This document shows, piece after piece, positions 47,222 to 64,000 of a stretch of 64,000 nucleotides of DNA. Origin of the DNA: a virus; IMG/VR virus record IMGVR_UViG_3300025647_000026, positions 1-64,000 of that record. The stretch is one strand, 5' to 3'. Below the pieces are notes generated by a model, which saw nothing but the letters and a program-made list of their open reading frames with translations, did no database searches and was not told where the DNA came from. A program made the translations under genes and the position numbers. Positions within the stretch are counted from its first letter, which is position 1. Each line of letters opens with the position of its first letter.

Positions 47222-47268
47222 TATTTACACTTCCTCTATTCGTTGTATAGTGATAACCAACCCAAAGT

Positions 47269-47354
47269 CAGTCAGAACATGATTCGAACATGTAAAAATA
47301 TAGGTAGTTAACACGCCTCAACCCTATAACGTATACCACTTCCGCCACCTGACT
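47269..47354 (-). ncRNA. tRNA-like RNA with an extended, non-canonical anticodon arm
   Basis: Acceptor AGTCAGG/TCTGACT; D arm GCGGAAGTGGTATACGT; T arm ACATG-TTCGAAT-CATGT; anticodon stem ATAGG/CCTAT encloses 18 nt. Confidence 0.65.
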
Positions 47355-47360
47355 AATTAT

Positions 47361-55740: not shown

Positions 55741-55802
55741 TAAAATTTAATTAGTTATTCTACTTTGCATTTTTAACTTTGTGAAACCAAAACGAACAAA
55801 TT

Positions 55803-60328: not shown

Positions 60329-60607
60329 TTTCTTTCCTCCTTACATTCTTTGTCTTTTGCCCTATCATTTTTATATAACATGTAGTTTCTTTTTTGTGGT
60401 TTATTTTCTTTATTTTAAAAACAAAATAAAGCCAAATAAACACACGTTTTAGCATAGAATCATTCTAAATAACATTTATTTTAAGCCTTTTTGCATTTTA
60501 ATTGATTGATTACTAACCATTAATTCATTTTAATTCTATTTATATTGTAGTTTAATACGCTTGGTTGTTCCTTTGCCTCATCAAATAACAACTAAACAAA
60601 TTTAATT

Positions 60608-63600
60608 ATGAAAACATTACAACAACAATTTAATGAAATTACTTTATTAAGATTATTCGAGATTGAAGTAATAAACAAAAATACTTTTGAAACTGACTAT
60701 ATTATTTTCAATATTGAACTAGATAATAATTGCCTTATTGCTACTCATGAAAGTTTGACAATTGAGCAACAAAATAGCAATAAAATTGCTTTTGTTTCAA
60801 TTGAGTTAGATGGTTGTTTTTCACTAGATGAAAATTTACAAGGTTTGCACGGTGAATGTATAGATGCAATTTTAAATAGTGACTTTTTTGAACTAGCTAA
60901 ATAAACAAAATTATGAAAAACTTATTATTTACAATTCTTTATTTGGGCTTCATTTTAGCTATTATTTCAATCGCAACAACTAATATATATTTATTAGGAT
61001 TGTCGGAGCTAATTTGTTTCCCGATAATAATCAGATTATTATTTTTAAACTTCAAAAATAAAGTTTAACTAACAAATAATTTTAACTAAATTTCATTTTA
61101 ATAACTTAGCTGTAATATTGCAGCATTCAATTAACAAATTAAAAACACAAATCAAAATTATGAATTATTCAAACGTAAATTTAAAAAGACCTTACGAGGC
61201 AAATCAAAACATTTTAGACTCAATTAATTTTGATGTTTTATTGTTAGAAATATCTTGCAATTTACCAATAATTAACAAAGAAACAATAAGAAAGCAGTTT
61301 GAAACAAGTTTAAACGCTAAAATTAACGAGGCGAAACAAGTTTTTAATGATAATTTAGAAAACATTTTAACTGAGGCTTTAGAGTATCAAAATATGAAAT
61401 AAATAAGAGTTTAACTGACGAGAATTTAATATTCGAAACAAGGTTTAAAAGCCTTGTATTAAACAAATTAAAAAACAAAATTATGAATACAATTGAAAAC
61501 AAAAAAGCTAAAAAATGGGATTACTCAAAAGTAATACAACAAAATTGTTGTTATGGTTGGGAAGATGTAAGCACATACGAAACAAACAGCCAATTTTTAA
61601 ACTTTCAAAAAAGCGGAGTTTTTAAAGAAAATAGCAAAGGGAAAAATTTTGAAGTATCTTTAATTAATCATGATTTTGCGGAGTATGCTCGTATGGGTTA
61701 CGCTGTAAGAATAATAAAAAGAAAAACACTAAATAAAGGAGAATAAAAAAATGGATATTCAAGACTTAAAAACAGCTAAAGAACAAAAAGTTAGTTTATT
61801 GTTAAAAGATTGTAAAGTATTTTTTGCTTTCAGTAATCAACAATTTGAAGAAAATAAAACACCTTTAGAGGAGGGAGAAAAATATGTTTCTATTGGTGCG
61901 GGTGGATATATGCCAAAAAGCCAAAAAGAAAATTTTAATAATGGTATGGATTTAATACATAATTGGTATAAAGGCGAAACGAAAAACAATAAATTAAGAA
62001 AGGAAAATATACTGTATGAGTTAAATAATCATGAAGCCTTTTATACAATGAGTATTGATACTACATTGGAAGTTTTAGGAAGCGAATATACAAGAAAAGA
62101 GGTTTTCAGCGTATATTCTAGGGAGTTAAAAAAATTAATTAAGGCGGATAAAATATAAAATTATGAAAAACGAAATTTATAAAAACTGCAAAAGTATTTT
62201 AATTGATACAGCTAAAGAAGCCAAAAGGCACAATAAAACAGATAAGCCTTATATAAGACAATGTATAAACGAACAAGCCGACCAATTGCACCGACAAATT
62301 GATTTTCACGAAATAAAGGAAACAATAAGCCAAAAGCAAGCAAATTTATATAAATTATGGATTACTAATTTAGCTTGTAATTTACACCCCTAAAAATTAA
62401 ACCAATGAAAACAATAATTAAAATCTTCCTTTCAATAGGTGAATTTATAGGCATTGCAATTTTATTATTTGGCTTAATTATACTAATTGAATTACTTTAA
62501 AGCCTTATAACGTGGCTTAATAGCTTGAAAATAAAGCTATGTAAATATTGAATATTTGCCACGTTCAAACACAAAAAAACAACAAATAAAATATGAATAT
62601 TCGCACAAAGAGACCCATAAATACAGTTAGAATAGTTAAAATTAGTTGCACTAATGAAATAGGGCAAACCAATCAAACTTTTACAGTGGATGAAAATAGT
62701 AAACAAAACAGCCCTAGTTTTGATAGTTATAATAATTTTATTGATTGGAAAAACAAACTTATTAATTATGCTTTTCGCACTGATTTAGAATATACTAAAC
62801 AAAACTATACTTCACCTTGTAACTAAATTAACCATGCAAAATTTAACCGATAAACAACTTCTTGATATGTGTGTAAATTACATGTACACGCCTCAAGGCT
62901 TATTAATTAGCTGTATTGCATTTATGATTTTAATTGGATTAATAGGCTTAACAATTGGATTGTTTCGCACAATTGCGCTAATTAAAACAGACTGCGAGGA
63001 AATTTTAAAAGATAAATAAACATACAATTTTAAACAAATAAGGAACACAATAAAATTATGGAAACTTTACAGCAAACAAGCTTTAATTTAAGAAATGCAG
63101 CTATTCAAAATATTACAGACTACTGTAATAAAAACAATTGTATGGAGCAATTTAATTCAATCAAAAAAGAGTTAATTTTACAAGCGGAAAAAGATAATAA
63201 TGAATTGATACCAATTGAATTTTACAGAAAATTTTATAATTTATCAATTGAATTTCTAAAATAAGGAACAAATAAATTTAACTTTAAAGTATTGTAAAAT
63301 AACTATTTACCTACATTAAGGAACAAACAAACTAAAATAAGGAATATAAAAAAACATCAAAACATCATGAATAAAGAAAATTATTTTATAGTATATTGGT
63401 TTGGCAGCCCAATATTTCAAACAAAAGACGAATTAACTGCTTATGCTTATGCAAATACATATAACACAGCAATTGTAAAAAAATCAAATAAATCATTATT
63501 ATAACATCATGCAAGCAATATATTTCAAAGGCACAATAATAGCTATATCCACAGCAGACAAAAATACAAGAGTAATTTTAAAACAACATAGCTGCGAAAG

Positions 63601-63965: not shown

Positions 63966-64000
63966 AAACTCGAACAATTTAAAAACACAAAACAAAATTA

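Follow-up and report, generated by a model that had tools for sequence, protein, structure and literature searches.

The plus-strand interval 61409-61464 of the window (the whole 64,000-nt stretch of virus DNA analysed here) holds a complete type I hammerhead motif of 56 nt, as read directly from the sequence. We consider it very probable that this active-looking type I hammerhead cuts a polycistronic message co-transcriptionally into two mRNAs. Judged by its class-defining features, the element is confirmed as a genuine hammerhead ribozyme, as the bases that the class requires are all in place: C3-U4-G5-A6-N7-G8-A9, G12-A13-A14, the A15.1-U16.1 pair and an H17 that is not G.

Anatomy of the motif, chance expectation and folding

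Three stems of 6, 4 and 8 bp surround the core, with no mismatch among the 18 pairs of the window copy (Table 1). An earlier note on this DNA had described a full core with three stems, and the sequence indeed reads as stated; the type I topology assigned there agrees with both a strict descriptor and the family covariation presented below. The cleavage site that it placed after A61458 matches the predicted position in the hammerhead consensus, and its A-rich leader comes to exactly 24 nt before the ATG at 61483. The stems were also called short and AU-rich, which is true, but this is typical across the whole subfamily and therefore no weakness of the window copy.

Table 1. Features of the candidate ribozyme and its flanking genes in window coordinates, with family copies of expanded stem III in locus coordinates
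Feature	Position	Strand	Basis or remark
A(-1), unpaired, caps the 5' side of stem I	61408	+	near-invariant in the subfamily
Stem I, 5' strand GUUUAA	61409-61414	+	all 6 pairs covary in the family
Catalytic core C3-U4-G5-A6-C7-G8-A9 (CUGACGA)	61415-61421	+	sequence, strict descriptor, Rfam alignment
Stem II hairpin, 13 nt, 4 bp from G10.1-C11.1, loop UUAAU	61422-61434	+	family loop consensus U-N-A-N-U
Core G12-A13-A14	61435-61437	+	sequence
Stem III hairpin, 20 nt, A15.1 to U16.1, 8 pairs including one G-U, loop UAAA	61438-61457	+	
A17 (triplet GUA) and predicted scissile bond 61458/61459	61458-61459	+	hammerhead consensus position
Stem I, 3' strand UUAAAC; predicted 5'-OH end of the downstream product	61459-61464	+	
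A(+1), unpaired, caps the 3' side of stem I	61465	+	near-invariant in the subfamily
Predicted post-cleavage leader, 24 nt, A-rich	61459-61482	+	no predicted structure
Upstream small ORF, 80 aa	61160-61402	+	no family match; stop at 61400-61402 ends 6 nt before stem I
Downstream small ORF, 87 aa	61483-61746	+	weak match to phrog_34889 (unknown function)
DUF7659 gene	61751-62158	+	next after the 61483-61746 ORF
Family copies with expanded stem III	L043:183-289, L043:3351-3437, L079 (two copies), L032:1671-1761, L146, L152		

The strict descriptor, which demands the exact core, U16.1, H17 and stems of at least 4, 3 and 3 bp, returned one site only on either strand of the 77,878-bp virus record. 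As a control, the sequence was shuffled 300 times with dinucleotides preserved inside blocks of 2 kb. Of these 300 shuffles, 4.3% contained a minimal-stem hammerhead in any of three topologies and 0.3% a type I hammerhead, and stems of at least 6, 4 and 6 bp were found in none (0/300). Furthermore, a search of the 77.9-kb genome with the covariance model R2 described below, repeated with filters off for 50-64 kb, revealed no second or degenerate copies.

Next, the folding energies were considered. The hammerhead secondary structure amounts to -9.5 kcal/mol, versus a minimum free energy of -10.2 kcal/mol. The minimum free energy fold of the isolated 56-mer is without stem I. By nearest-neighbour energies alone, the ensemble consists mainly of stems II and III, stem I pairing with a probability of only about 21%, so activity would depend on a putative tertiary contact. 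In the predicted products, the first 57 nt of the downstream piece are unpaired and the upstream piece ends in the stem III hairpin. Stem III was also considered as an intrinsic terminator and ruled out, being without a U-run and without a plus-strand terminator call.

Family, covariation and signature

The exact core together with stem II recurs in two other IMG/VR contigs with unrelated flanks, where stems I and III are fully compensated, for example GGUUAA/UUAACC and GUAACA/UGUUAC versus GUUUAA/UUAAAC in the window. A looser pattern matched more than 100 viral loci, about 30 of which hold complete type I hammerheads of the same build according to the descriptor, many with 2-6 copies within a few kb. 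We seeded a first covariance model with six equal-length copies, which gathered 39 copies from other contigs, and from those 39 a second model, R2, was built with the window left out. R2 scores the window at 70.3 bits (E 1.7e-17), and this score together with the family covariation bears out the hammerhead identity claimed in the earlier note. In the 39-copy alignment 98.5% of cells are standard pairs, versus 65% when columns are shuffled and 24-40% when partners are slid, and compensatory changes on both sides occur in 16 of the 18 pairs; as this alignment was fitted to the structure of the model, such pair counts lean towards that structure, a bias of which three unaided comparisons are free. 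The only pairs invariant in the 39 copies are G10.1-C11.1 and A15.1-U16.1, as in the hammerhead consensus. The fold predicted from sequence is thus confirmed by covariation across about 40-100 related copies in other phages.

The curated Rfam models respond far more weakly. At gathering thresholds none reports a hammerhead in the window, nor in eight family loci with about 25 subfamily copies, and RF00163 gave no match when run on the whole genome at E<=10 or on the whole window. With a 121-nt stretch as query, the two best Rfam matches are both hammerhead models, each sub-threshold. The best match, RF03152 (RAGATH-1-hammerhead), scores 24.3 bits against a cut-off of 56.3; it likewise has type I topology, with stem I short and AU-rich, stem III long and the 5' flank rich in A, whereas the positions of the accessory hairpin that defines it, ahead of stem I, come out as deletions when the window is aligned. 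RF00163 (Hammerhead_1) has the same topology and aligns end to end, exactly over 61409-61464, yet at 18.7 bits against a cut-off of 34. Stems II and III of the window copy are longer than those of the model. By its features the element is a hammerhead, but by score it is a member of no curated Rfam model.

On sequence grounds, the window copy belongs instead to a large subfamily of type I hammerheads from phages and prophages, delimited in this work by models R1 and R2, as it combines a 6-bp stem I with an A/A cap, a 13-nt stem II and a stop-to-start placement. The fetched loci together hold 99 distinct type I copies. Stem I is 6 bp long in 75 of them, and in 74 of these 75 an A stands directly 5' and another directly 3' of the stem; in the first viral set A(-1) is A in 35/35 copies with a 6-bp stem I. 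Neither A(-1) nor A(+1) was imposed by any search pattern. Loop II of the first viral set carries U1 in 35/35, A3 in 33/35 and U5 in 35/35 copies, the first search pattern having constrained only the arm sequences of stem II and left the loop free. The second pattern prescribed U1, A3 and U5, so that the copies it selected later are uninformative on the loop; 21 pattern-free copies with a 13-nt stem II show U1 in all tabulated loops and mostly A3, with the fifth base often A. Position H17 is C or A across the family, rarely U and never G, and the GUA triplet of the window is a minority form. Every signature base is present in the window copy, and its stem I stops at the A/A cap.

Fast hammerhead cleavage at physiological Mg2+ needs a tertiary contact between stem I and stem II. 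The window copy has no loop I and no bulge in stem I, and the conserved A(-1)/A(+1) together with the U-N-A-N-U loop II suggests a possible stem I-stem II contact. Inspection of the family table by eye revealed no Watson-Crick pairing of loop II with the flanks that was consistent across members. A loop II-flank pseudoknot was rejected as a family feature, the 3' flank being complementary in the window and L002 and not in L012, L044 and L005 (by eye). Since this pairing is inconsistent across members, it is conservation that points to the putative contact. Separately, stem III is expanded to 50-110 nt in some family copies, as an extra folded domain inserted in loop III (Table 1).

The signature pattern was also recovered at 45 loci in one-genome-per-species bacterial and archaeal assemblies. 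All 45 score with R2, yielding 72 matches, mostly at 45-72 bits, of which the two weakest (25-28 bits) are marginal. Many carriers are Bacteroidota (Mucilaginibacter, Tenacibaculum, Paraflavitalea, Flavobacteriales, Parabacteroides and others), and further carriers belong to the Proteobacteria, Bdellovibrionota, Firmicutes, Verrucomicrobia, Planctomycetes, Cyanobacteria, Saccharibacteria and some archaeal MAGs. Some of the assembly matches sit in complete chromosomes, and the short MAG contigs with copies may be binned phage DNA. The window phage has one copy, as have the cultured phages phi18:3 and elemoF_6-3D, and other subfamily contigs have 3-10. Dense arrays were observed as well, with nine matches in the 5.8-kb contig L134 and six each in L143 and L158 (these three being Aliivibrio and Gammaproteobacteria MAG contigs), and 5-6 copies in 3-4 kb in the IMG/VR contigs L043 and L080. 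The same stem I sequence is often repeated within the array of one contig.

Placement between genes and the proposed division of the message

Nearly all of 46 distinct copies sit in an inter-ORF gap, on the strand of the co-directional flanking ORFs. Of the 46, 38 have an ORF that ends no more than 300 nt upstream, and in 27 of these 38 the stop codon lies -6 to +8 nt from stem I (median 1, the stop often overlapping stem I; 6 in the window). Likewise, the cleavage site falls 14-37 nt before the next ATG in most of the 46 (median 27; 24 in the window). The flanking proteins are unrelated between contigs, obviously related phages excepted, and tblastn recovered no homologues of 17 window ORFs in any fetched locus. 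With unrelated flanking genes, the ribozyme therefore appears to be a generic punctuation mark that is not bound to a gene family, and the clusters of Perreault et al. were likewise called generic and not tied to a gene family (PMC3088659).

The leader that follows the ribozyme is of the AACAAAUUAAAAA...AAUUAUG type, which is common to neighbouring genes without a ribozyme. Small-gene start regions at 60587-60616, 61133-61160, 61462-61491 and 63973-64000 share a AACAAAUUAAAAA...AAAAUUAUG leader that is without a Shine-Dalgarno sequence, and such leaders would fit Bacteroidota-type translation initiation. As the neighbours use the same leader with no ribozyme, cleavage is therefore no general requirement for translation here.

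The virus record encodes terminase and portal at 16.8-21 kb, a DnaD-like replisome organiser at 52.3 kb and an AntA anti-repressor at 58.7 kb, and from 51.5 to about 70 kb roughly 60 mostly small ORFs run co-directionally on the plus strand; only one junction in this small-ORF array has a ribozyme. No terminator-like site was found on the plus strand between 55 and 64 kb. Given the same-strand array and the lack of a terminator in that interval, the ribozyme most likely sits inside a polycistronic RNA. The label "early" for the flanking genes is plausible, because the array follows the replication and anti-repressor genes. A scan for sigma-70 promoters gave matches at chance level only, and intergenic TAnnTTTG boxes occur on the plus strand at 55774, 58720 and 68637, with a further box at 61225 inside the upstream ORF. 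The intergenic boxes, together with A-rich leaders that have no Shine-Dalgarno sequence, speak for a Bacteroidota host. Moreover, the only terminase relatives among cultured phages, at about 30% identity, infect Flavobacterium, Cellulophaga and Maribacter. The source is a tailed phage that probably infects a member of the Flavobacteriia. No close phage relative emerged when 60600-62400 was compared by blastn with cultured phages, and no relative of the DUF7659 protein was found in IMG/VR.

Two further features of the record were registered. Between 60329 and 60607, a 279-nt gap without a plus-strand ORF interrupts the small-gene array; its plus strand is pyrimidine-rich and an imperfect hairpin with 22-nt arms spans 60395-60444 (fold z-score only -1.4). 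This gap could be an operon boundary or a minus-strand feature. ARAGORN moreover reports a tRNA-Ser with anticodon UGA at 47267-47355 on the minus strand.

The motif, its statistical significance, its family membership, the covariation and the conserved placement are shown by the data; that the RNA is cut in vivo, that the transcript is polycistronic and that decay or translation changes as a result is what we infer. Once transcribed, the RNA would fold into a three-helix junction and cut its own backbone after A61458. The upstream piece would retain stems II and III and end in a 2',3'-cyclic phosphate, and the 6-bp AU-rich stem I would melt after the cut. The downstream mRNA would then be released with a 5'-OH and an unstructured, 24-nt A-rich leader before the gene at 61483. 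In this manner one polycistronic message may become two mRNAs, the stability and translation of which would be free to differ. Such a role, with a split mRNA and a 5'-OH end, is the standard interpretation of phage intergenic hammerheads (PMC3088659, PMC6765202) and would fit the gene layout found here.

Perreault et al. 2011, PLoS Comput Biol (PMC3088659), had already reported gene-flanking hammerheads from phages and prophages, and the earlier note too remarked that hammerheads are known in phage intergenic regions. For phage hammerheads with this layout, cleavage has been demonstrated in vitro as well as in E. coli (PMC3088659). The present element shares with them the core and the three-helix junction, as well as an intergenic, sense-strand location between small variable phage genes, and the role proposed there, processing of long phage transcripts into single-gene or operon-length mRNAs, corresponds to the one outlined above. 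In contrast, this genome has a single copy of type I topology and not a cluster (at least two) bracketing genes. Furthermore, there is here no consistent complementarity between loop II and the flanks (by eye), and the contact would be formed by the A/A cap and the U-N-A-N-U loop II. The role proposed in 2011 (PMC3088659) is still listed as unproven in a 2019 review (PMC6765202).

Competing explanations, meaning and cultured carriers

The element could be a selfish or neutral passenger, that is, a genuine ribozyme that may cleave and that spreads by recombination with small gene cassettes without regulatory benefit, an explanation that we judge improbable. Nearly all copies are intergenic, lie on the co-directional strand and keep a tight stop-to-start position, which is at odds with a passenger, even though the distribution is sporadic (one copy here, in phi18:3 and in elemoF; 3-10 in other contigs) and different contigs have unrelated flanking genes. 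The 18-nt stem III hairpin inside A15.1-U16.1 (61439-61456) is identical in the window and in phi18:3 despite differing stems I and II and flanks, which favours a passenger, and so do the neighbouring genes that carry the same leader without a ribozyme. We know of no mobility mechanism for a 56-bp DNA-encoded motif, which counts against a passenger, and core and signature positions that have all stayed fully intact speak for selection on activity. A fortuitous match or a decayed, non-cleaving relic, with hairpins that are ordinary intergenic structure or a terminator, is hardly credible: the short, AU-rich stems I and II, the unreached Rfam cut-offs and the minimum free energy fold of the isolated 56-mer without stem I would suit it, but none of the 300 shuffles is as good, the E-value of 1.7e-17 comes from a model built without the window, the 18 pairs hold 0 mismatches with all conserved core and signature bases present, and stem III is followed by no U-run and coincides with no plus-strand terminator-like call.

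We thus return to the reading of an active hammerhead that divides a polycistronic message. The window copy adds no new principle, phage hammerheads having been known since 2011, and what genomic hammerheads do for bacteria and phages is an open question according to a review (PMC6765202). The added value lies in a subfamily model that picks up dozens of copies missed at the Rfam cut-offs, in the fixed place, from stop codon to next start, that ribozymes of the subfamily occupy, and in the conserved signature of A/A cap and loop II. A more far-reaching proposal, which we regard as rather unlikely, is that these copies constitute an uncurated structural subclass of type I hammerheads with an open-ended 6-bp stem I and an invariant A/A cap that contacts the U-N-A-N-U loop II. 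It would be present in phages and prophages of many phyla and be missed by every Rfam model at threshold, and its cleavage would set a 5'-OH leader of about 14-37 nt, roughly the size of a ribosome-binding region. If true, with the A/A-cap contact as a new tertiary solution, or with the setting of the leader being of importance for Shine-Dalgarno-less Bacteroidota translation, bacterial hammerheads would have a concrete, testable job.

Additionally, two cultured Flavobacteriia phages, phi18:3 and elemoF_6-3D, were identified as systems for direct testing. No transcriptome of phi18:3 was found in the literature. This Cellulophaga phage has an unannotated type I copy at NC_021794.1 21902-21960 on the minus strand (L119:5975-6033; 46.6 bits), located between gp050 and gp049 and with a tetraloop as loop II. 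The anti-restriction gene ardA (gp045) lies about 900 nt downstream, which echoes the A. tumefaciens example of Perreault et al. 2011. The unannotated copy in Flavobacterium phage elemoF_6-3D, at NC_055853.1 16043-16104 on the minus strand (L120:2995-3056; 45.2 bits), has mismatches in stems II and III. Over this copy, in the gap between gp65 and gp67, the annotation places gp66, an antisense "hypothetical protein" of 35 aa that is probably a spurious gene call.
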